Shown one piece after another: positions 1 through 8,826 of a stretch of DNA of 10,273 bases; position 1 is the stretch's first letter; the number at the start of each line of letters is the position of its first letter. The notes under the pieces were generated by a model. The model was given only the letters and a program-made list of their open reading frames with translations, was not told where the DNA came from and ran no database searches. The stretch comes from Sulfolobales archaeon (GTDB taxonomy: Archaea > Thermoproteota > Thermoprotei_A > Sulfolobales > AG1), in the NCBI GenBank assembly GCA_038867615.1, contig JAWBYA010000019.1:1-10273 (forward strand). Direction: 5' to 3'. A program made the translations under genes and the position numbers.

Positions 1-2
1 CA

Positions 3-2057
3 AAGGAGTTTGCGGATATACTTAAGATCTATGAGTTCTTCAACGTATTCGACGAGAACTATTGGTGGTACAGCAGGATCTATCGGTTATTCGAGAGAGA
101 GAACCTTTCGCCCGAGTATAAGCAGTTATGGAATATAAAATATGATGTGCTCCCCCGGGGCTCCTTCGAGAATGAGAGGCTTCATGGTCTTACAGGTTTC
201 TTAGTGAAGAACTATAGATATCTCAGATACCTCAATCCTGACTATGGCATTCTCTGGGAGATCCAGTTCCACACCGAGCTGGATCCTAAGGTGGCTTATC
301 TCGAAAAGGTTAATGAGGATTTTAGGAGGAGGACAACATATCTGAGGACACCTGATCCACAGTTCTTCAGGGACTATACGAAGTGTGCAGAGAAGATCTA
401 CATGGAGGTTGCTGGCGACTGCAATATACATGCAGCCTCCTATATATATGATAGGTTTTGCTCGGGGCGTACTATCCTCTGCGGGGCATACTCGGTTCAC
501 TGTATGAGTGATCAGAGGTTTGAGGGTGCTGCATCTTCAGACCCTTCAGTTCTTGTGATGCCTGTTGAGGAGTCAGCTGTAGGGGGTATCCTCGAGAGCT
601 GGCCGATAGGTCTATACAACGACATGGCACTGCTGGGCAACAGGAGTGCTGATCTGATGCCGGCAGTATATATCGAGTTCCCAACCCTCATAGTTAGGAG
701 GGAGATCGCTGATAACGAGATAGACCCTGATAGAAAGCCTGTTAAGAGAAGGTATAGGGCTGTGTACCTCAATGTATATGAGTTCGATGCTGAGATACCA
801 TATGCATATATCCACAGCTACCCGCCTCCGAGGTTTACCGATGGCTTCTTCAGGGAGGATATGGATCCATATCCTTCCCAGGTGTTCACAGCTGACTTCA
901 ACGAGGTTAAGATATACTCTGAGCATATATATGGCTTGAGACCCGTGTACAGCATAGTCAATAGCCTGAGGGCTGGGTATCTAGACCCTGTATCAGCTGC
1001 TGATCTATTCCATGCTGTCGGTATAGTGGCTGTTGCTACGAAGCCGGAGTGTATGGATGCCCTTCTAAGGGGCGAGACATCTAAAGATGTCCTCAGGATC
1101 TGCTGTGAGAACTGCTACAAGCCTGGGAAGGAGTTCCTTCCACACGGTGCTAGGCCGATCTTCAGGGGGAGGGGGATATGGGGTGGGGAGCTACTGACAA
1201 AGCATCTATCAAAGCCCATGTTCACAGCGGATGACTATATAGCTCTATATGCCAGGATTGCATATGCTGCTTCGAAGCACCTCGAGGAGATCACCCGGAG
1301 AACTGCCTCGATAGCCCTTTCAAGGTCTAAGAAGGATCCCAATAGATTTGCAAGCCCGGCGGGTGCATCTCTATTCGCAAGGCATCTAATGGATGTTGTC
1401 CTATCAGCGTATATGCTGACTAGGTGGGACTCGAGCTGCTCAGCAAAGCGTGGCGAGAAGGTCGTGGCTCTCAATGAGGAGAACCTGCTGAGGATCCTGA
1501 GGAGCCTGCCGAGGAACACACCACTAGGGATGCTCCCGTGGGAGGTTAGGAGGGGGCCTATGGCACCTGATGTACCATCGCTGGATGAGCTTGAGAGGAT
1601 ATTCGATGAGAAGATATGGCCGATCGCAAGGCCAGGCGGATATATCATCCCGAGGCCCGAGCTGATGTCCAACCTAGCCACTAGACCGCTCTACAAGGGT
1701 CTAGCAATAGTATCTACCCTTGGAGAGGGGCACGAGGTCTCCAGATTCATACTTAGGAGTATTGGGGAGAGGATAGAGGTGCTGAGGAGGAGGATGGAGG
1801 ATGCACTGAGAGAGGCCGACTCACCGAGCGAGGCCTCGGTTTATGAGGAGCTCAAGAGGATCCCACCAGAGAGGCTGGGAACAGCAATACCGAGCAAAGA
1901 TGCGTTGGGACGGGCTAGGATCGCTGCCTCGAAGAGATACAGGGTCATAGCAGATGAGTATGGAAGAGCACTCAAAGCAATTGGAAAGGCCCTGAAATGG
2001 TTCGGAGTAGCAGAAGATCTACTGGCAAGGATCGAAGAGATCGTCGGAAAAATATGA
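3..2057 (+). CDS. Large hypothetical protein, 5'-partial (at least 684 aa)
   Basis: The frame of the listed 147..2057 ORF is also open from base 3 (KEFADILKIYEFFNVFDENYWWYSRIYRLFERENLSPEYKQLWNIKYDV-LPRG...), so the real start lies upstream of the window. Codon usage matches neighbouring genes. It has a CCENC Cys cluster and a helical, charged C-terminus. No family recognised. Confidence 0.85.
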   Translation, partial: KEFADILKIYEFFNVFDENYWWYSRIYRLFERENLSPEYKQLWNIKYDVLPRGSFENERLHGLTGFLVKNYRYLRYLNPDYGILWEIQFHTELDPKVAYLEKVNEDFRRRTTYLRTPDPQFFRDYTKCAEKIYMEVAGDCNIHAASYIYDRFCSGRTILCGAYSVHCMSDQRFEGAASSDPSVLVMPVEESAVGGILESWPIGLYNDMALLGNRSADLMPAVYIEFPTLIVRREIADNEIDPDRKPVKRRYRAVYLNVYEFDAEIPYAYIHSYPPPRFTDGFFREDMDPYPSQVFTADFNEVKIYSEHIYGLRPVYSIVNSLRAGYLDPVSAADLFHAVGIVAVATKPECMDALLRGETSKDVLRICCENCYKPGKEFLPHGARPIFRGRGIWGGELLTKHLSKPMFTADDYIALYARIAYAASKHLEEITRRTASIALSRSKKDPNRFASPAGASLFARHLMDVVLSAYMLTRWDSSCSAKRGEKVVALNEENLLRILRSLPRNTPLGMLPWEVRRGPMAPDVPSLDELERIFDEKIWPIARPGGYIIPRPELMSNLATRPLYKGLAIVSTLGEGHEVSRFILRSIGERIEVLRRRMEDALREADSPSEASVYEELKRIPPERLGTAIPSKDALGRARIAASKRYRVIADEYGRALKAIGKALKWFGVAEDLLARIEEIVGKI

Positions 2058-2094
2058 TCATCTAACCTCCCAGCCCTAAATTCTGCAACATATA

Positions 2095-2138
<44 letters not shown>

Positions 2139-2185
2139 GGTTATGGAATAGCTTATCCAGGCCACGCCATTGTTTAGGAGGGTGT

Positions 2186-2959
2186 ATGCCGCAGATTAGT
2201 AGATGGACTTTCATGTTCTTCATAATACTGAGCATGATGGTTATAGTGATATTCGCCCAGGCTGGGATATCGCCGCAGACACTACCGTGGCTGACAATCC
2301 TCGTGATATCATATATTGTTGGATCTATCTTCGCATTCTTCGGACATATATTGATACCTAGGCTCGTGAGGATCTATCTTGGTGATGTTAGGATAGAGAA
2401 CGATGTTATAATAGTCTGTGGGAGGGATGGGCAGAGGCCCGAGGATAACTGCACAGCTGCCATGGCATTCAAGCTCCTACCCCTCCAGCCTGTGAGCGAT
2501 ATGCAGGATGAGCAGGTCAAGGCACTCCTAACAAGTGTCGAGGGTGCTGTCTTCGGGATGCCCCTGGGGACTCTATACTGCATACACAAGACAGAGGATC
2601 CACTGATACCCGCTGAGCTCAAGAGGCTCCAGGCCGAGATAAAGGGTGCACAGCTCCAGGCCAACGCACCTAGGAGGACTATATTCTCCGCAGCACAGGC
2701 TGTTAAGCTCGAGAGCCTACAGAGGGAGATGGCCAGGCTTATGAGGAGCAGGGCTGTAGCAGCTATACAGTTCATCATGATACAGGCTAGGGGGAGAACA
2801 GATGTTGAGGCTGTTAGCAGGGTCAAGACAATGGCTCAGCAGGTTGAGAGCATAGCACAGCAGATCGGGTGCACGGCGATAAAGCTGAGCGGGATCAACC
2901 TGAGGAACCTCCTAGAGATCATGCTAATGGATAGAGCTGTGAGGTGGGTAGAGACATGA
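2186..2959 (+). CDS. Membrane protein with two N-terminal TM helices; putative conjugation/T4SS-associated (PrgI / VirB4 N-terminal-like) protein
   Basis: RBS AGGAGGGTG just before the ATG. Two hydrophobic segments in about residues 8-57, a central coiled-coil-like stretch, and a C-terminal pattern 'AVSRVKTMAQQVESIAQQIGCTAIKLSGINLRNLL' resembling the end of VirB4-N/PrgI-type domains. The CDS is solid; the function is pattern recognition only. Confidence 0.55.
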   Translation: MPQISRWTFMFFIILSMMVIVIFAQAGISPQTLPWLTILVISYIVGSIFAFFGHILIPRLVRIYLGDVRIENDVIIVCGRDGQRPEDNCTAAMAFKLLPLQPVSDMQDEQVKALLTSVEGAVFGMPLGTLYCIHKTEDPLIPAELKRLQAEIKGAQLQANAPRRTIFSAAQAVKLESLQREMARLMRSRAVAAIQFIMIQARGRTDVEAVSRVKTMAQQVESIAQQIGCTAIKLSGINLRNLLEIMLMDRAVRWVET

Positions 2960-3378
2960 AGAGGATTAGGGGGATAGGAGAGGTAGTCGGTGCCGTGCTA
3001 CTCATAGGGGTGGCTATGGCTGCGTTCCTCATATTCTACCCAATAGCGTATAACATAATAGCTAGCGGATCCACAGCACAGCCACCAAGAGCATCGATCG
3101 CAGACTTCGCAGTGCTAGCAGATCGGAGGACAGCGGTCGCATATATATCAGCTGTGGGTGGGAGTGTAAGGACAACACTTGTCAAGGTAGACGCATACGT
3201 GGTATGCAGTACAAACGTTTACAGTGCATCATACAGTATAAATGTAGATATAGACCCAGGTGCCTCTAAGGAGTTCACAGCCAAGCTGGACTTCGGGAGC
3301 ACGATAAACTGTGCACAGCCTGTTATAAGGGTTCACACGATCTTCAGAATGCCCGATGGTAGCTATGTTATAACATAG
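2956..3378 (+). CDS. Archaeal type IV pilin-like protein (class III signal peptide)
   Basis: MKRIRG^IGEVVGAVLLIGVAMAAFLIFY: short basic leader, RG cleavage site, hydrophobic N-helix, then a beta-rich domain with two Cys. The ATG at 2956 overlaps the upstream stop (ATGA) and follows GAGGTGGG, so it is preferred over the GTG at 2944. Confidence 0.85.
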   Translation: MKRIRGIGEVVGAVLLIGVAMAAFLIFYPIAYNIIASGSTAQPPRASIADFAVLADRRTAVAYISAVGGSVRTTLVKVDAYVVCSTNVYSASYSINVDIDPGASKEFTAKLDFGSTINCAQPVIRVHTIFRMPDGSYVIT

Positions 3379-3385
3379 CCTTTCC

Positions 3386-4780
3386 CTAGACATCGATCCA
3401 GTTTATACCTGTTAGAAGATCTCTGAACCTCCTATCCATAGCAATGACCCTCGCCCCGGCCCTCGCAGCCCTGCCAATAGCCTGGATAGCCCTTATCCTA
3501 GCTATCTCTCTATAGCCATTCACGCCGAGCACCCTTGATAGAACCTCTACCTCGGGGGACTTGGATGGGTATGGAGCACCGACTAGGATCATGAGATCGT
3601 GTGGAGGTGGTTCCACACCCTCCGTGTATATCCCCCCTGCAACATCCTCCAACACGATCCTCCCCCTGGCATCACCTAGCAAGGGTGATACAGCCTTCAT
3701 AACCTCCCTGCTCTGATAGACTATGAAGACCCTGCTATGTCTCTTCACAAGCTCCTGGATCTCAGAGGCTATCGATCTGTACATCTCATCTCCCCTAGAG
3801 CTATACTCAGTAGTATATCTATCCATGATCTCTACCCTCACAAGGGGTTTAGAGCCTACCTCGATCACCTCAGCCCTTCTGAAGAGACCAAGCCTAACAG
3901 CACTCATATAAACAGATCTATCCATGTCTGTGAATGGGTATCCTCCGACAACAGCGTATATAGATCCCCCGTGTTCGAAGCAGATCTTTCTACACCTCAT
4001 CAGGATCTGGATCTCCTCGGGAGCCCTGCCACCGATCTTCTCGTATATCGCAGATGCTATCTCGGCAAGTGCCGATAGATCCCTCTCCTTCTTAAGACCA
4101 TATGCAAGCCTATACAGCTCGTAGTCAGCGGATTCCCTGGCATGGGATGAAACGATCCTGGAGACCTCTGACAGCCTCTCCCTGGATATAGGCCTCACAG
4201 CCTCCTCATACATAGATATTATAGAGTGGTACTCGTCGAAAACCCTGATCCTGTCCCTGGATATGATCTGTGGGTGGTGGATCGCATACTTATACGTTGC
4301 GACAACCCTCGGAGATGTCTCTACAAGCCTTGCGAGGGATGGGTATAGGCATGCACCTATCTCCCTAGCACGCTCCCTAATAGCCTGTGAACCGCTGAAC
4401 TGGGCACCATATACAGCCCTTATCCTCTGCTCGGTAACAGCTGTATCGCATTTACCAGAGAGCCTCATGATCCTGCAGAACTTCTCAAAAGGGGTGGGAT
4501 CCCCTGGCTCTCTCTTGTAGCAGACCTCATCCATACCATATGCCCTAACAACACTCCCACCGCCGCCCCTCCTATAGTGCTCCAGAAACGTATCAAGCTC
4601 ATTATGTGTCCTAGCGATATACAGAAACCTTGCCTCGGATGCGAGCTCCCTAGCAGCCTGGAGAGTCTTCCCATAGCCAGGGGGTGCCACAACAACAGCA
4701 GATCCACCGCCCCTAGCTATCCTAAAAGCCTCCCTGATCTCCTCCTTCTCAGATAAGAACCTATCGAGGGTTTTTATCAT
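3386..4780 (-). CDS. XPD/Rad3/DinG-family SF2 helicase with Fe-S cluster (compact, 464 aa)
   Basis: Walker A APPGYGKT, motif Ia YIARTHNE, four Cys (DEVC, EKFC, SGKC, GACLY), motif II VFDEYH, III MSA, V TEGVE, VGAPYP, VI QAIGRAAR, terminal MDRRF. The start at 4780 (MIKTLDRF) is preceded by RBS GGTGGGT. Confidence 0.9.
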   Translation of the reverse strand: MIKTLDRFLSEKEEIREAFRIARGGGSAVVVAPPGYGKTLQAARELASEARFLYIARTHNELDTFLEHYRRGGGGSVVRAYGMDEVCYKREPGDPTPFEKFCRIMRLSGKCDTAVTEQRIRAVYGAQFSGSQAIRERAREIGACLYPSLARLVETSPRVVATYKYAIHHPQIISRDRIRVFDEYHSIISMYEEAVRPISRERLSEVSRIVSSHARESADYELYRLAYGLKKERDLSALAEIASAIYEKIGGRAPEEIQILMRCRKICFEHGGSIYAVVGGYPFTDMDRSVYMSAVRLGLFRRAEVIEVGSKPLVRVEIMDRYTTEYSSRGDEMYRSIASEIQELVKRHSRVFIVYQSREVMKAVSPLLGDARGRIVLEDVAGGIYTEGVEPPPHDLMILVGAPYPSKSPEVEVLSRVLGVNGYREIARIRAIQAIGRAARAGARVIAMDRRFRDLLTGINWIDV

Positions 4781-4812
4781 ACCCACCAAAAACCAGCAGG
4801 AAAAAAGCAACC

Positions 4813-4830
4813 ACAAACAGATCTATTTGT
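4813..4830. promoter_or_regulatory. Near-perfect palindrome in helicase/phosphatase divergent intergenic region (candidate operator)
   Basis: ACAAACAGATCTATTTGT: 8 of 9 arm positions are complementary, centred in the 80-bp gap 4781-4860. Confidence 0.45.
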
Positions 4831-4860
4831 CCAAATCAACAAATAATATTGGATGGGAAC

Positions 4861-5451
4861 ATGGAGGTAGCTGATCTCGGATGGTTTGTTGTATATACTC
4901 GATCGAGACCTGCTTCGAGATTTCTAGCTATCTTTGATCTAGACGGTGTTATCTTCGACTCCACAGAGAGGTTTAGAAAATCGCTAGAAGAGGCAGGTGT
5001 TTCCGAGGAGGAGTTTAAAAAAGATCATAGGAAGAGAAGCAGGGTATGGGAGATCTTTCTAAGCAACAAATACCTAGAACTGGATAAGCCAGTGCAGGAC
5101 GCTCTAACATCTATGGAGAGGGCGTATATGCTTGGATTATCGGCTGTGATCCTGAGTGGGAGACCTAAAAGAATGGCAAGCAAAACAATCGAGATGCTGG
5201 ATAGAATAGGAGCCAGATACGACCTATTGATCCTCAGGGGAGATGCCAACAAGGAGAAGGATCATATATACAAGGCAAGGGCAATGAGATGGCTCGTAGA
5301 ACATGAGTACGAGGTTGTGGAGATCCACGACGACTCAGAAGAGGTTCTAAACAAATTAAGGGAATTAGCTCCAGACGCGAAGCTATATCTATGGATCGGC
5401 GGGAGAAAAACAGAGCTGGGAAGCAATAGAAGAACTGCCATCACAGCCTAG
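4861..5451 (+). CDS. HAD-superfamily phosphatase, T4 PNK 3'-phosphatase / class B acid phosphatase-like
   Basis: Motif I IFDLDGVIFD, motif II LSGRP, LILR...DHIYK (motif III Lys), motif IV IHDDSEEV. The start is uncertain (TTG 4849 or ATG 4861). Confidence 0.88.
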   Translation: MEVADLGWFVVYTRSRPASRFLAIFDLDGVIFDSTERFRKSLEEAGVSEEEFKKDHRKRSRVWEIFLSNKYLELDKPVQDALTSMERAYMLGLSAVILSGRPKRMASKTIEMLDRIGARYDLLILRGDANKEKDHIYKARAMRWLVEHEYEVVEIHDDSEEVLNKLRELAPDAKLYLWIGGRKTELGSNRRTAITA

Positions 5452-5704
5452 ATTCTCTGCTCAGCATCAAATATATAAGCATCGTAGCGATAATCACTAT
5501 GAACCCTAAACCACCCGGCATTGGGTGGGGGGAGATTGAAAAGTTGCTCATGATGAATATCGAGACTGTGTTTGAGGAGCACGAGATCGCAAGTTCTCTG
5601 CCAGTTAGATAGAGTATTAGGTGTAGATTTGATGTTCTAAATGGTATCTCCTCTGTGCTAGCTATTCTGCTTACTATTTCTATCATCTCTCTGCATAGAT
5701 CCAT
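5441..5704 (-). CDS. Small hypothetical protein with C-terminal TM anchor
   Basis: The ATG at 5704 is preceded by RBS GGTGA. C-terminal GLGFIVIIATMLIYLML hydrophobic helix followed by basic residues. Overlaps the phosphatase 3' end by 11 nt. Confidence 0.6.
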   Translation of the reverse strand: MDLCREMIEIVSRIASTEEIPFRTSNLHLILYLTGRELAISCSSNTVSIFIMSNFSISPHPMPGGLGFIVIIATMLIYLMLSRESRL

Positions 5705-6044
5705 CGCTATCACCTTCAGAACTTACAGGTATTGGGTCTCTCTCATCTACCTCGATCTCTATGTGATCGCCGACTTGTTTTGCGGATACCGGTGTTCCCG
5801 GGATCTCCTTCTCCTCAACACCTCCCCCGTCTAGAAACACAGCTATCCTTGTGCGTCTAACCTCTATCTGCCTAGCCTTTCCACCACATCTTACCCTGAT
5901 GAATGTCCTGTCACCCCTCCTGATCATGTACATGTCAGAGGCTATCTCTCGAAAGCCATCCTCAACAGCATTGATATACAGCTCAACACCTGCTAGGAAA
6001 GCGAGAGCAACAGATCTGATTTTAGATAGGATTTTCCGCAGCAT
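5658..6044 (-). CDS. Hypothetical protein (128 aa)
   Basis: ATG at 6044, typical codon usage, basic then hydrophobic N-terminus followed by a beta-rich region. Fills the gap divergent from tfb and overlaps the next gene by 47 nt. Confidence 0.65.
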   Translation of the reverse strand: MLRKILSKIRSVALAFLAGVELYINAVEDGFREIASDMYMIRRGDRTFIRVRCGGKARQIEVRRTRIAVFLDGGGVEEKEIPGTPVSAKQVGDHIEIEVDERDPIPVSSEGDSDGSMQRDDRNSKQNS

Positions 6045-6054
6045 AAGAACACCA

Positions 6055-6078
6055 CAATTATTTTTCGAAATTTAATTG
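6055..6078. promoter_or_regulatory. 24-bp AT-rich dyad in the 43-bp divergent gap upstream of tfb
   Basis: CAATTA-TT-TTTCGAAA-TT-TAATTG: 10 of 12 arm positions are complementary. Confidence 0.5.
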
Positions 6079-6087
6079 GGAGGCTGT

Positions 6088-6990
6088 ATGGAGGATAGAT
6101 GCTCAGAGATTATTCATGATAAAAGTAGAGGTCTTGTTATCTGTGCCGATGATGGTCGTGTTATAGAGGAGAGGACTGTTGATTTTGAGTTCGAGCCGAG
6201 GGGATATACATATGAGGAGATGCTTGAGAGGGATAGACTTGGATCTCCGATGCCTCATGGGATGGAGAACATCTATATCTCAACCGATTTCGGGACAAGC
6301 TATACATCAGATGGAAAGAGAATGGATATAGATGATAGGTTCAGGAGCAGGAGGCTTAGAAAGCTGCATATGAGGACGATGGTTGAGGATAGGGATAAGA
6401 GGTATATTCTCAGAGCAAGAAAGGTTATAGATCAAATAGCATCTGCCTTCAACCTGCCAAAGGAGGTTGTGAACCAAGCACTCATAATATATTCAGAAGC
6501 ATATAGAGCTGGACTGCTATCTGGGAGACCGGTTGAGTGTCTAGCGGCTGCAGCTATATACATAGCATGCAGATCAATGGGTATTGCTAGAAGCTCTAGA
6601 GAGATAGAGAATGTGATATCAAAGGAGGTTAAATTCTACAGCTGTCTGAGGGCTATATATGAGAAGATAGATCTTGAGAGGCTCGGTGTAAAACCAGCCG
6701 ATATGGTTAAGCCACTGATATCGAGGATCATAAGCAGCCTGGGATTAGGAGGATATGTTGAGGAGAAGGCATATAAGATCCTGGGGATAGCCAGAGAGAA
6801 AGGAGCAACATCGGGAAGATCACCACCTGTTATAGCGGCTGCATGTGTATATCTAGCATGCACCGCAGCCAAGATCAAGGTCAGTACTAAAGAGATAGCA
6901 GGTGCAGCAGGCGTTAGCGATACAGCAACAAAGACAGTGGCAAGGGAGATAATGAAGATCTTGAAGCAGGGGGCGGTGAACAGGAAATGA
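6088..6990 (+). CDS. tfb: Transcription initiation factor IIB (TFB) paralogue, diverged
   Basis: Zn-ribbon-like IIHDKSRGLVICADDGRVIEE, B-linker RLRKLH, and two cyclin repeats (GRPVECLAAAAIYIACR; GRSPPVIAAACVYLAC) with a terminal HTH. The ATG at 6088 follows RBS GGGAGG. Confidence 0.95.
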   Translation: MEDRCSEIIHDKSRGLVICADDGRVIEERTVDFEFEPRGYTYEEMLERDRLGSPMPHGMENIYISTDFGTSYTSDGKRMDIDDRFRSRRLRKLHMRTMVEDRDKRYILRARKVIDQIASAFNLPKEVVNQALIIYSEAYRAGLLSGRPVECLAAAAIYIACRSMGIARSSREIENVISKEVKFYSCLRAIYEKIDLERLGVKPADMVKPLISRIISSLGLGGYVEEKAYKILGIAREKGATSGRSPPVIAAACVYLACTAAKIKVSTKEIAGAAGVSDTATKTVAREIMKILKQGAVNRK

Positions 6991-7847
6991 GGATCCCCAG
7001 GGTTAGGGTGATATCATATACCGTGGATGGTGAGAGGCTTGTTGCTGCTTCTTCTAAGAGGAGCCTTTCTTCTAGGGATGTCTCGGAGATATTCGAGGCT
7101 ATGGGGGATGATGAGGTTGAGACTTGGATTAGGGAGACTCTTAGGAGGGGTCATCTAAGTCCTTGGGAGCATTCTGTATATACCTTCGAGGTTATATGCT
7201 CCAGGGTTTGTTCCCACCAGCTTGTTAGGCATAGGATTGCTAGCTATACACAGCTTAGCCAGAGGTATAATGAGAGGCTTCTAGAGCCAAGGGATCCCAA
7301 GTACTGGCTTGATATCTCGGATAGGGTTTTGAAGGGGGATCGAGAGGCTATAGAGGTGGTTTCCAGAGCATTCTATCTAGGCGATCCAGACTGGCCGCAG
7401 GATCTTAGGCTACAGATGGCGTCTGAATATGCTAGATCTGTTGCTATGTATTGGGAGCTGCGTGGCAGGGGATTATCTAGAGAGGATGCCAGGTATATCC
7501 TCCCGCAGGCGATCGTAACCAAGGTTGTTGTCACAATGAATGCTAGGGAGATCCTTCACTTCCTCGGGCTGAGGATGTGCACACATGCACAGACCGAGAT
7601 AAGGCTTGTGGCGTGGATGCTGAGGGAAGAGCTAATGAAGATCCACCCAAGGCTATTCAAATACGCAGCACCATACTGCATCCTAGACAACAACCTAGTC
7701 TCGAAAGAACCCACAACCCTAGAAGATATAGTCGAGGGAAGAGCACAACCATCTATAGAAAGATGCAGAGAACTAGTCCCAAGAGAAGGGATAAGAAACT
7801 GTGTACTGCATAGCATGAAACTATATAGAACAACACATGAGGGATAA
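6987..7847 (+). CDS. thyX: FAD-dependent thymidylate synthase ThyX
   Basis: GHLSPWEH, SRVCSHQLVRHRIASYTQLSQRY (RHRx7S signature), EDARYILP, TMNARE, HAQTEIR. ATGA overlap with the tfb stop. Confidence 0.97.
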   Translation: MRIPRVRVISYTVDGERLVAASSKRSLSSRDVSEIFEAMGDDEVETWIRETLRRGHLSPWEHSVYTFEVICSRVCSHQLVRHRIASYTQLSQRYNERLLEPRDPKYWLDISDRVLKGDREAIEVVSRAFYLGDPDWPQDLRLQMASEYARSVAMYWELRGRGLSREDARYILPQAIVTKVVVTMNAREILHFLGLRMCTHAQTEIRLVAWMLREELMKIHPRLFKYAAPYCILDNNLVSKEPTTLEDIVEGRAQPSIERCRELVPREGIRNCVLHSMKLYRTTHEG

Positions 7848-7849
7848 AC

Positions 7850-8329
7850 ATGAAAGAGATAGAGATAGCGAAGAAGATAACTCTACTTAATCCATCAGTG
7901 TTTCTGAGTGTATCAGGTGGAAAAGATTCCGCTGTAGCGGCGCATTACGCTCTAGCACTGCTTGAGAAAGCTGGTTTCGACAGATCAAATATAGTGATGA
8001 TCCACGCGGTTACGCCACTCTCACTGCCAGAGAACCTAGAATATGTGAAGAAGCTAGCTAATTTCATGAATGTGAAACTTGAGATAGCACAATATGATCC
8101 ACGGTACGGCTTAGACTACATTGCGAATGGAGGAGGGTTGCCTTGGATCATGAACAGGTGGTGTATGGATAAGTGGAAGGTTAGACCATTACGATCGATA
8201 ATGAGTAAATATCGATATCCACATGTTGTCACACTTGGGATCAGAACCTCTGAATCATTGAGAAGATTCAACATCTACTCAGACAAAGAACCGCTATACT
8301 TTGAAACGAGGGAGAAAAGATATGTGTGA
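7850..8329 (+). pseudogene. PAPS reductase/DndC-like PP-loop protein, C-terminally truncated
   Basis: SVSGGKDS PP-loop, LPENLEYV, RWCMDKWKVRPL, LGIRTSESLRR. It stops at 159 aa, just before the expected PIxxW and terminal GCxxC motifs. Confidence 0.7.
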
Positions 8330-8826
8330 CATCTATGCTGGTAGCACTGCTGAAATATGGTTTGAAGCTACAGCAAGAACCGGTTGCAGGTGTTCATGTA
8401 GATCATAGATTCTACCACCCAGTAGACGATATAAAGGTGGATGTGATGGTCGATGGATTCAGAGAGGAGGGGAGAATAGTGTGGAACCTAGCACCAGTGC
8501 TAAGAAGATATGGGAGCCTAACACTTGAGCACGCAGTGATCGCAAAACTAGTTAGAAGGGCATTCGATAAAAGAACAGATGCATATGATGTCTCCGTAAG
8601 CATCCCATCCATAGATATTGATAGGTTCACAGAGATATATAGAGAGTTGAGAAATACAAACCAAGAGCTAGCGGAAAGGGTCGAGCCACACCTCAACATA
8701 GTAGAAGAATATATCAGAGAGGACTTTCCAGCCACAGAAGCATCAATAATACTTACAAGGCTAAGAGAGATAAGAAACAGAATCAGAAGCGTGGGGGAGG
8801 CAAAAAGATCTGCCGTGAAAAGCTAG
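8326..8826 (+). CDS. Hypothetical protein resembling the C-terminal part of a pol-beta-type (AbiEii-like) nucleotidyltransferase; possibly 5'-truncated
   Basis: TLEHAVIAKLVRRAFDKRTDAYDV resembles the 'LExLIAxKL...RxxDxYD' motif, and KVDVMV could supply the third Asp. No N-terminal GG..DxD motif is present. GTGA overlap with the upstream stop. Confidence 0.5.
   Translation: MTSMLVALLKYGLKLQQEPVAGVHVDHRFYHPVDDIKVDVMVDGFREEGRIVWNLAPVLRRYGSLTLEHAVIAKLVRRAFDKRTDAYDVSVSIPSIDIDRFTEIYRELRNTNQELAERVEPHLNIVEEYIREDFPATEASIILTRLREIRNRIRSVGEAKRSAVKS

Follow-up and report, generated by a model that had tools for sequence, protein, structure and literature searches.

The 10,273-bp window analysed here, which is the whole of contig C19 of the bin G000 (2.22 Mb, 28 contigs) of an uncultured hot-spring archaeon of the Sulfolobales, carries an intact gene for a full-length but divergent paralogue of transcription factor B (TFB). 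In the encoded protein, the B-reader helix and the helix that recognizes the B recognition element (BRE) are substituted at their most conserved positions. The protein falls outside the clade of housekeeping TFB1, has no orthologue in 40 related genomes, and is encoded in a strain-variable accessory island. The reading that we favour, tentatively, is that of an accessory, strain-specific alternative TFB with an altered or relaxed upstream-element preference and an altered start-site or promoter-opening behaviour, which would serve promoters of the island.

Identification of a divergent TFB gene

The gene lies on the forward strand, in an open reading frame (ORF) running from 6076 (TTG) or 6088 (ATG) to 6990. 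Read from 6088, it encodes 300 amino acids (aa) plus a stop; the sequence GGGAGG (6078-6083) precedes this ATG and lies 3′ of an imperfect palindrome (6056-6077). The first-pass annotation of the window had named the gene a full-length TFB paralogue, and this description holds, the ORF being intact and the strings quoted for its ribbon, B-reader and C terminus all being found in their places (Table 1).

Two TFIIB repeats were detected in the 300-aa protein by Pfam search (PF00382, two stretches, E 2.5e-30), and Zn_Ribbon_TF (PF08271) was not detected at E ≤ 0.01. With the NCBIfam TFIIB model NF001658 the divergent TFB scored 187 bits, under the cut-off of 384 bits, and the TFB1 of the host (contig C13) scored 428 bits, above it. 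A phmmer search of Protein Data Bank sequences matched the Pyrococcus woesei TFB core (E 2e-22), as well as human and yeast TFIIB.

An AlphaFold2 model built from an input alignment of 111 rows had a mean pLDDT of 88.2 and predicted a TFB-like layout. The modelled strands at 8-11, 16-19 and 25-28 form a three-stranded, ribbon-like fold, followed by a short helix (42-48), a B-linker helix (81-98), two five-helix cyclin repeats and the two helices (267-274 and 278-299) of a helix-turn-helix (HTH). The top Foldseek matches of the model were TFIIB or TFB without exception, and its core aligned to 1d3u_B over 196 columns with a TMt of 0.80 and an rmsd of 3.0. The divergent TFB is an intact, full-length paralogue of the TFB/TFIIB fold, comprising ribbon, B-reader, B-linker, two cyclin repeats and HTH.

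Substitutions in the B-reader, recognition helix and ribbon

The protein was compared with 155 other TFBs, namely 151 database matches and the four remaining TFB-like genes of G000. The earlier claim that its B-reader and BRE-recognition helix are rewired was borne out in so far as the most conserved positions of both are substituted. The B-reader Trp, present in 122 of the 155 and absent in 33, is replaced by Pro (W37P), as in only one other TFB. The changes G34E, P35F and A39G are shared with 7, 2 and 4 of the 155, respectively; D32, E36 and R38 of the same motif are retained. Also retained are the B-reader loop (R48-x-R50-x-G52-x-P54), the B-linker motif RLRK (89-92) and G146-R147 of the GR loop in cyclin repeat 1.

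In the C-terminal HTH, the near-invariant Arg at position 282 (R in 150/155, absent in 5) is Lys, a residue found there in two other TFBs. The Gln that precedes the HTH (137/155) is replaced in Q267T, and position 281, occupied by I, V or L elsewhere, is Thr; neither of these two changes occurs in any of the 155. The recognition helix further carries V279T (8/155 alike; V in 119), T280A (3/155 alike; T in 135), N283T (8/155), R284V (4/155; R in 117) and Y285A (9/155). In the phmmer alignment, V283 and R286 of human TFIIB stand opposite T279 and K282 of the divergent TFB; these two human residues reportedly make base-specific BRE contacts.

The HTH deviates at 10 of 14 conserved columns, a count equalled by two database TFBs and exceeded by two more, which deviate at 11. 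Over the whole protein, 59 of 97 conserved columns are kept and 38 deviate (median deviation in the other TFBs, 22), and residues unique to the divergent TFB also occur at positions 106, 136, 170 and 181. Judged from these column counts, the HTH and B-reader substitutions go beyond chance drift at these sites, yet their degree is not unique.

The ribbon contains only two Cys, C5 in DRCSE (aa 3-7) and C19 in ICADDG (aa 18-23), and a four-Cys ligand set is absent. The same two-Cys arrangement, C-P-(P/S)-..-I-C-x-(E/D)-T-G, was found in the host TFB1 and in all 11 TFB1 recovered from the family, and the viral TFBs of ARV2 and ARV3 likewise have two-Cys ribbons. Because the TFB1 of the host family are also two-Cys proteins, the missing ligands are no bar to TFB membership in this lineage; as the first-pass annotation had noted, this feature is not novel, and being a lineage trait it is no part of the rewiring. 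The ribbon does carry changes of its own: C22D and E16L each occur in none of the 155 other TFBs, and the first knuckle is two residues shorter than in TFB1. The same deletion is present in P0006, P0010, P0037, P0061, P0049 and P0085, and marks members of a loose, long-branch group of TFBs.

Phylogenetic position and relatives

The TFB-like set of G000 consists of one canonical TFB1 (C13) and four divergent genes: the window gene, a 313-aa and a core-only 236-aa gene on C1, and a 345-aa gene on C12. In the five other species of the genus, the set is limited to TFB1 and the two C1-type copies. No orthologue of the window TFB turned up in 40 related genomes, where TFB1 was in every case the best match, with identities of up to 39%. 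A HMMER search over 1.84 billion representative sequences returned 3693 matches at E ≤ 1e-3, the best non-self match being P0006 with 37% identity. The only close sequences are one copy identical at 299 of 300 positions and one fragment. Three metagenome runs cover the gene wholly or in part; one of them shows a single amino-acid polymorphism, and the partial piece from the third run (516 nt) shows no difference.

In a careful tree of 31 rows, with which a quick tree of 53 rows agreed, the divergent TFB and the accessory TFBs of the C12 type are sisters (support 90/91). Together they belong to a set of long-branch TFBs with weak support (85/84), which a 95/90 branch parts from 19 rows that include a tight TFB1 clade. 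The terminal branch of the divergent TFB measures 1.0-1.2 changes per site, compared with at most 0.04 for the TFB1 of the genus. Clustering with housekeeping TFBs of like substitutions, which the first-pass annotation had named as the outcome that would overturn its reading, was thus not observed. On these trees and searches, the divergent TFB is placed as an orphan outside the housekeeping clade, among fast-evolving accessory TFBs.

The nearest database relative, P0006, has a near-canonical B-reader and HTH. It is encoded on a 45-kb metagenome contig (L128, 3000-14000), where 11 of 12 neighbouring ORFs have no Pfam family and one adjoining gene hits the PHROG of a viral 'DNA topoisomerase' (E 5e-49). 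This contig had no DNA match among known phages, and P0006 was not found in the genome_contigs collection; the contig may belong to a virus or another mobile element. A scan of viral_contigs gave no relative of the divergent TFB.

A strain-variable, mosaic locus

Positions 1-5828 of the window are 99-100% identical to contig C74 (L028) of G001, another species-level genome, although the leuB-leuA genes of G000 and G001 are only 76-80% identical. This near-identity is a sign of recent transfer or of mis-binning. The G001 contig ends short of the TFB gene. At its other side it completes the truncated first ORF of the window to 1061 aa, and adds a divergent 1029-aa ORF without a family and a GHKL-ATPase fragment that is TmtA-like in PADLOC. 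G001 also has a thyX gene that agrees with the window thyX at 97% of its first 113 nt and follows leuA and a repeat element rather than a TFB gene; in several bins, thyX is found at the end of a contig.

Two insertion polymorphisms were found. At ~2095, G001 has 278 extra bases; at 5541/5542, its contig C74 has 226 extra bases and a contig of run X1 has 172, and contigs of run X3 break there. Several window proteins have paralogues, 28-65% identical, on other small contigs of the bin. The stretch comprising a HAD gene, the 128-aa gene o6, the TFB gene and thyX is spanned by X1 record 3 and X3 record 12, contigs from hot-spring metagenomes of different studies, the latter beginning at 5542, downstream of the HAD gene. 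Since contigs from other runs and different studies span them, these junctions are real. In metagenome depth, the contig equals or falls short of related chromosomal contigs, which speaks against a separate mobile genome.

A repeat of ~45 bp that contains a hairpin, with the core CCTCGCCC-TTTA-GGGCGGGG, occupies 2093-2139. It recurs at 82-100% identity in dozens of places in genomes of the genus and family, and coincides with a 10- to 40-fold spike in depth and many loose ends in the metagenome contigs. It looks like the end of a miniature inverted-repeat transposable element (MITE) or an insertion sequence (IS)-type element.

The first-pass annotation had spoken of promoters of an element. 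What stands of this is that the locus is a strain-variable accessory island; direct marks of a mobile element were not seen. Pfam, PHROG and PADLOC scans showed no capsid or integrase gene in the window, viral hallmark genes were seen neither there nor in the 4.9-kb G001 extension, and no tRNA or att site was found in the window. Of the 130 repeat-spacer units in the bin's own two CRISPR arrays (C1 and C11), none matched the window or the G001 extension beyond chance hits of 14-16 nt. A 34-nt match on C3 was rejected as an array, being coding DNA. In phrog_20431, the divergent TFB scored 146 bits and the host TFB1 243 bits; because the housekeeping protein scores higher, this match is no argument for viral origin. 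The island is possibly mobile: its absence from congeners, its mosaic make-up, the near-identity to another species' contig, the extra thyX and the insertion polymorphisms speak for this.

Operon and neighbouring genes

The TFB gene heads a four-gene operon, in which it is followed by a second thyX, a PAPS-reductase-like gene and a gene of no recognized family (Table 1). The syntenic thyX of G000 is on C8; the window ThyX is 80-82% identical in amino-acid sequence to the copies of the genus, which are 95-96% identical to each other. The 159-aa PAPS-reductase-like protein is similar in PADLOC to SspD (1.6e-11) and is DndC-like. The 166-aa product of the last gene had no family in Pfam, PHROG or PADLOC scans, and has a 45% identical paralogue on C23.

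Table 1 Features of the TFB gene and its surroundings in the window
Feature	Position	Strand	Basis
Divergent full-length TFB gene	6088..6990	+	ORF, Pfam TFIIB repeats, AlphaFold2 model, Foldseek
N-terminal ribbon, two Cys only, aa 5-28	6100..6171	+	Predicted strands, alignment
B-reader helix motif DFEFEPRGY (canonical DxGPEWRAF), aa 32-40	6181..6207	+	Column counts
C-terminal HTH STKEIAGAAGVSDTATKTVAREI, aa 266-288, substituted recognition helix	6883..6951	+	AlphaFold2 helices, column counts
thyX, second copy in bin; start overlaps TFB stop (ATGA)	6987..7847	+	Pfam Thy1 4.9e-54, TIGR02170
PAPS-reductase/PP-loop-like gene, 159 aa, 2 nt 3′ of thyX	7850..8329	+	PF01507 1.2e-10, phrog_424
Unknown 166-aa gene, overlaps preceding stop, last of operon	8326..8826	+	ORF
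Unknown 128-aa gene (o6), divergent from TFB gene	5658..6044	-	ORF
AT-rich 22-nt imperfect palindrome centred on TTTCGAAA, 18/22 self-complementary	6056..6077	.	Sequence

The 128-aa protein has a 34% identical paralogue on C11; it had no Pfam family, and the ESM Atlas gave no usable lead. The palindrome sits in the 43-bp gap that separates the 128-aa gene from the TFB gene, and an A>T change at 6057 was seen in two metagenome runs. Its sequence and position make it a candidate for a bidirectional promoter or an operator.

Beyond the 128-aa gene, to its left, come a PNK-phosphatase-like HAD gene, an XPD/DinG-like helicase gene and a pilin-like pair, and the left end of the window holds the 3′ part of the gene for the 1061-aa protein, which has no recognized family. 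The pilin-like pair (2186-3378) consists of a 257-aa membrane protein followed by a 144-aa protein whose N-terminus resembles that of type IV pilins, and is duplicated on C18 (9515-10704) with 57% and 39% identity. Weak defence-type similarities were found with PADLOC among the neighbours, namely the DinG-like helicase, the SspD/DndC-like protein and the TmtA-like fragment.

Proposed function

If the divergent TFB is an alternative factor for island promoters, it would still work with the host TATA-binding protein (TBP) and RNA polymerase (RNAP): because the ribbon fold, B-reader loop, B-linker and cyclin core are conserved, it should still sit on TBP-DNA and engage RNAP. The recognition helix, with Lys for Arg and without a second Arg or the Tyr, could still lie on DNA. 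From its residues, the base-specific BRE contacts of TFB1 are probably impossible for it, and because this helix is changed, BRE reading would be unlike that of TFB1. Loss of the TFB1-type contacts would in turn lead to the use of BRE-less promoters or of another upstream sequence, and so to a private promoter set, most likely within its own island. Replacement of the B-reader Trp by Pro would probably alter the handling of the template strand, and with it either the choice of start site or how efficiently promoters are opened. The sigma-factor-like specificity switch proposed in the first-pass annotation would be a reasonable way to word such a role.

These expectations can be set beside published work. 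In the available text of the sources, the W44 position of the Pyrococcus furiosus TFB1 B-reader helix is described as cross-linking to the template strand at -6/-7, and Sulfolobus TFB is given a preference for G at -6 and A at -3 (PMC11065993). Multiple combinations of TFB and TBP are linked there to promoter specificity (PMC7289017; PMC3261711).

Several observations weigh against a role at private promoters. Deviations across the whole protein, as the alignment has them, are also expected under relaxed selection, and selection on the divergent TFB cannot be measured, because all its close copies are near-identical to it. Mis-binning of the contig between two co-occurring species may have occurred. 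In the metatranscriptome, a single run (X13; share of words 0.07), no contig lies on the TFB gene, although contigs cannot show absence; two short X13 contigs lie on the window, at 3076-3253 and 5679-5831. A distinct promoter motif was not shown in the window, with its ~6-8 promoters and the weak host BRE.

The promoter comparison was made with a TATA-centred matrix from 1065 upstream regions of G000. The BRE positions of this matrix carry at most 0.28 bit each, and this, with only ~6-8 promoters in the window, leaves the comparison without power. A score of at least 7 was reached by 35% of 400 host upstream regions and by 6% of their shuffles, and matches to the matrix are scattered across the coding DNA of the window. 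No host-type TATA match of at least 7 was found on the forward strand ahead of the TFB gene, with a matrix that reaches only 35% of host regions; for this reason the scan cannot separate host-type from private promoters.

Alternative explanations

A drifting, redundant paralogue, recently acquired or duplicated, under relaxed selection and without private promoters, weakly active or nearing loss, is a serious but rather unlikely alternative. The spread of substitutions over 38 of the 97 conserved columns agrees with it, as do the long terminal branch, the restriction to a single lineage and the existence of comparably divergent HTHs in other database TFBs. A gene on its way to loss is harder to reconcile with an intact ORF modelled confidently throughout, with the retention of the B-reader loop, B-linker and structural core, and with a sequence that is essentially invariant across independent metagenomes. 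The overlap of the TFB stop with the thyX start, in a compact operon, also argues against it.

The divergent TFB could instead be a decoy or inhibitor that occupies the TBP-TATA complex or the RNAP dock and is poorly productive, damping host transcription while the island is active or serving in defence; we regard this as unlikely. The loss of the B-reader Trp and the ribbon changes E16L and C22D fall in parts that act in or on RNAP. The RNAP-inhibiting paralogue TFS4 and the virus-encoded RIP are precedents for global repressors in the accessible part of PMC7289017, the low-activity P. furiosus TFB2 is a parallel, and some neighbours have the weak defence-type similarities mentioned above. 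A changed BRE helix, by contrast, would be of no obvious need to a pure decoy.

A co-activator of the TFB3 type, which would act in trans alongside TFB1 and not in its place, is improbable. Sulfolobales TFB3 is used in this way according to the portion of PMC7289017 available, and ribbon-only and ribbon-plus-one-repeat TFB-like genes are present on C12 of the same genome. The window TFB, however, has a complete cyclin core and HTH, and is therefore built to sit on TBP-DNA itself.

It is most improbable that the gene is a binning or assembly artefact, that is, another organism's housekeeping TFB or part of a chimeric contig: the near-complete (~100%) identity of 1-5828 to another species' contig, the 97% identity of the thyX start to its thyX and the place of thyX at contig ends in several bins would fit, but TFB1 is highly conserved across the family, nothing above 37% was found among the 1.84 billion representatives, the HAD-o6-TFB-thyX junctions recur on contigs of two other runs from different studies, and mis-binning would alter the name of the host, not the nature of the gene.

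Other accessory transcription factor genes in the bin

The window TFB is not the only accessory gene of this kind in G000. Three TFB-like genes lie at 9857-18390 of C12 (L030): the 345-aa full-length TFB that is sister to the window TFB in the tree, a 190-aa gene with a ribbon and a weak cyclin repeat, and a 173-aa ribbon-only gene. Their neighbours encode a KaiC/RecA-like ATPase, a PLD-nuclease, a ParA-like protein and an AbiEi-like protein. Homologous proteins with a single TBP-domain repeat, just over the Pfam cut-off (25-27 bits), are encoded on C11 (L042; 7313-8080, 255 aa) and C26 (L125; 1471-2031, 186 aa). On C11, the TBP-domain gene diverges from two others that lie side by side, one for a PD-(D/E)XK nuclease and one homologous to the window's 128-aa gene, and C11 also carries a DinG/XPD-like helicase 28% identical to that of the window and a 17-repeat CRISPR array.

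One could imagine, although we hold it to be a long way from probable, that accessory islands own basal machinery, in which the window TFB, the C12 TFB with its two short TFB-like companions and the C11/C26 TBP-domain proteins form a private, sigma-like system of promoter recognition. If so, mobile or defence islands would be transcribed independently, or at the expense, of the host TFB1/TBP programme. The set of accessory factor genes across the bin may deserve more attention than the window TFB by itself.

Significance

In archaea, the choice of promoter is mostly attributed to a single TBP-TFB pair, and the expression of mobile-element and accessory-island genes there is poorly known. Should the window TFB prove to direct transcription of the island that carries it, it would be the archaeal equivalent of the sigma factors of phages and of integrative and conjugative elements. 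A natural TFB with the BRE-contacting residues and the B-reader Trp replaced and the rest intact is also a probe of the roles of these residues, namely of their contribution to BRE reading and start-site selection. At present, it counts as a further divergent TFB paralogue, encoded in a genome that was assembled from a metagenome.

Comparison with known systems

The domain order and fold of the window TFB are those of TFB1/TFIIB (P. woesei core bound in a TBP-BRE-TATA complex, 1D3U). It differs from any TFB1 in being at most 39% identical, in falling outside the TFB1 clade and in not being conserved among relatives.

P. furiosus TFB2 has a non-canonical B-reader, and is described in the text available as active but weak in promoter opening (PMC13502027). 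Like the window TFB, it is a natural full-length paralogue, the likeness being one of description only, and it offers a model of the effects of an altered B-reader. Unlike TFB2, the window TFB is altered in the B-reader helix motif only, with loop and linker conserved, and additionally in the BRE helix.

In the TFB expansions of other archaea, such as haloarchaeal TfbA-G and the two TFBs of most Thermoprotei, the extra copies are associated with separate regulatory programmes in the accessible parts of the papers (PMC3261711, PMC7289017). These paralogues are conserved within lineages, like the 313-aa and 236-aa copies that G000 shares with its genus, whereas the window TFB lies in variable DNA.

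The TFBs of Acidianus rod-shaped viruses 2 and 3 and of Sulfolobales virus YNP2 resemble it in being divergent, full-length, encoded on mobile genomes and two-Cys in the ribbon. They are only 23-28% identical to the window TFB and are not its nearest neighbours in the tree. Both TFB and ThyX are labelled in rudivirus genome maps, as seen in the available part of bioRxiv 10.1101/2020.01.16.907410. The literature searched yielded no functional study of TFBs encoded by viruses or islands.

TFB3 is short, consisting of a ribbon plus a coiled coil without the cyclin core, and acts with TFB1. The window TFB is unlike it in having the full cyclin core and HTH. The two are alike in that Sulfolobus TFB3 is an accessory paralogue of the same order-level lineage, of degenerate architecture and with a special regulon, as far as the accessible text of PMC7289017 describes it. 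The window TFB is an orphan addition to the accessory TFB paralogues, which are already known as a kind.

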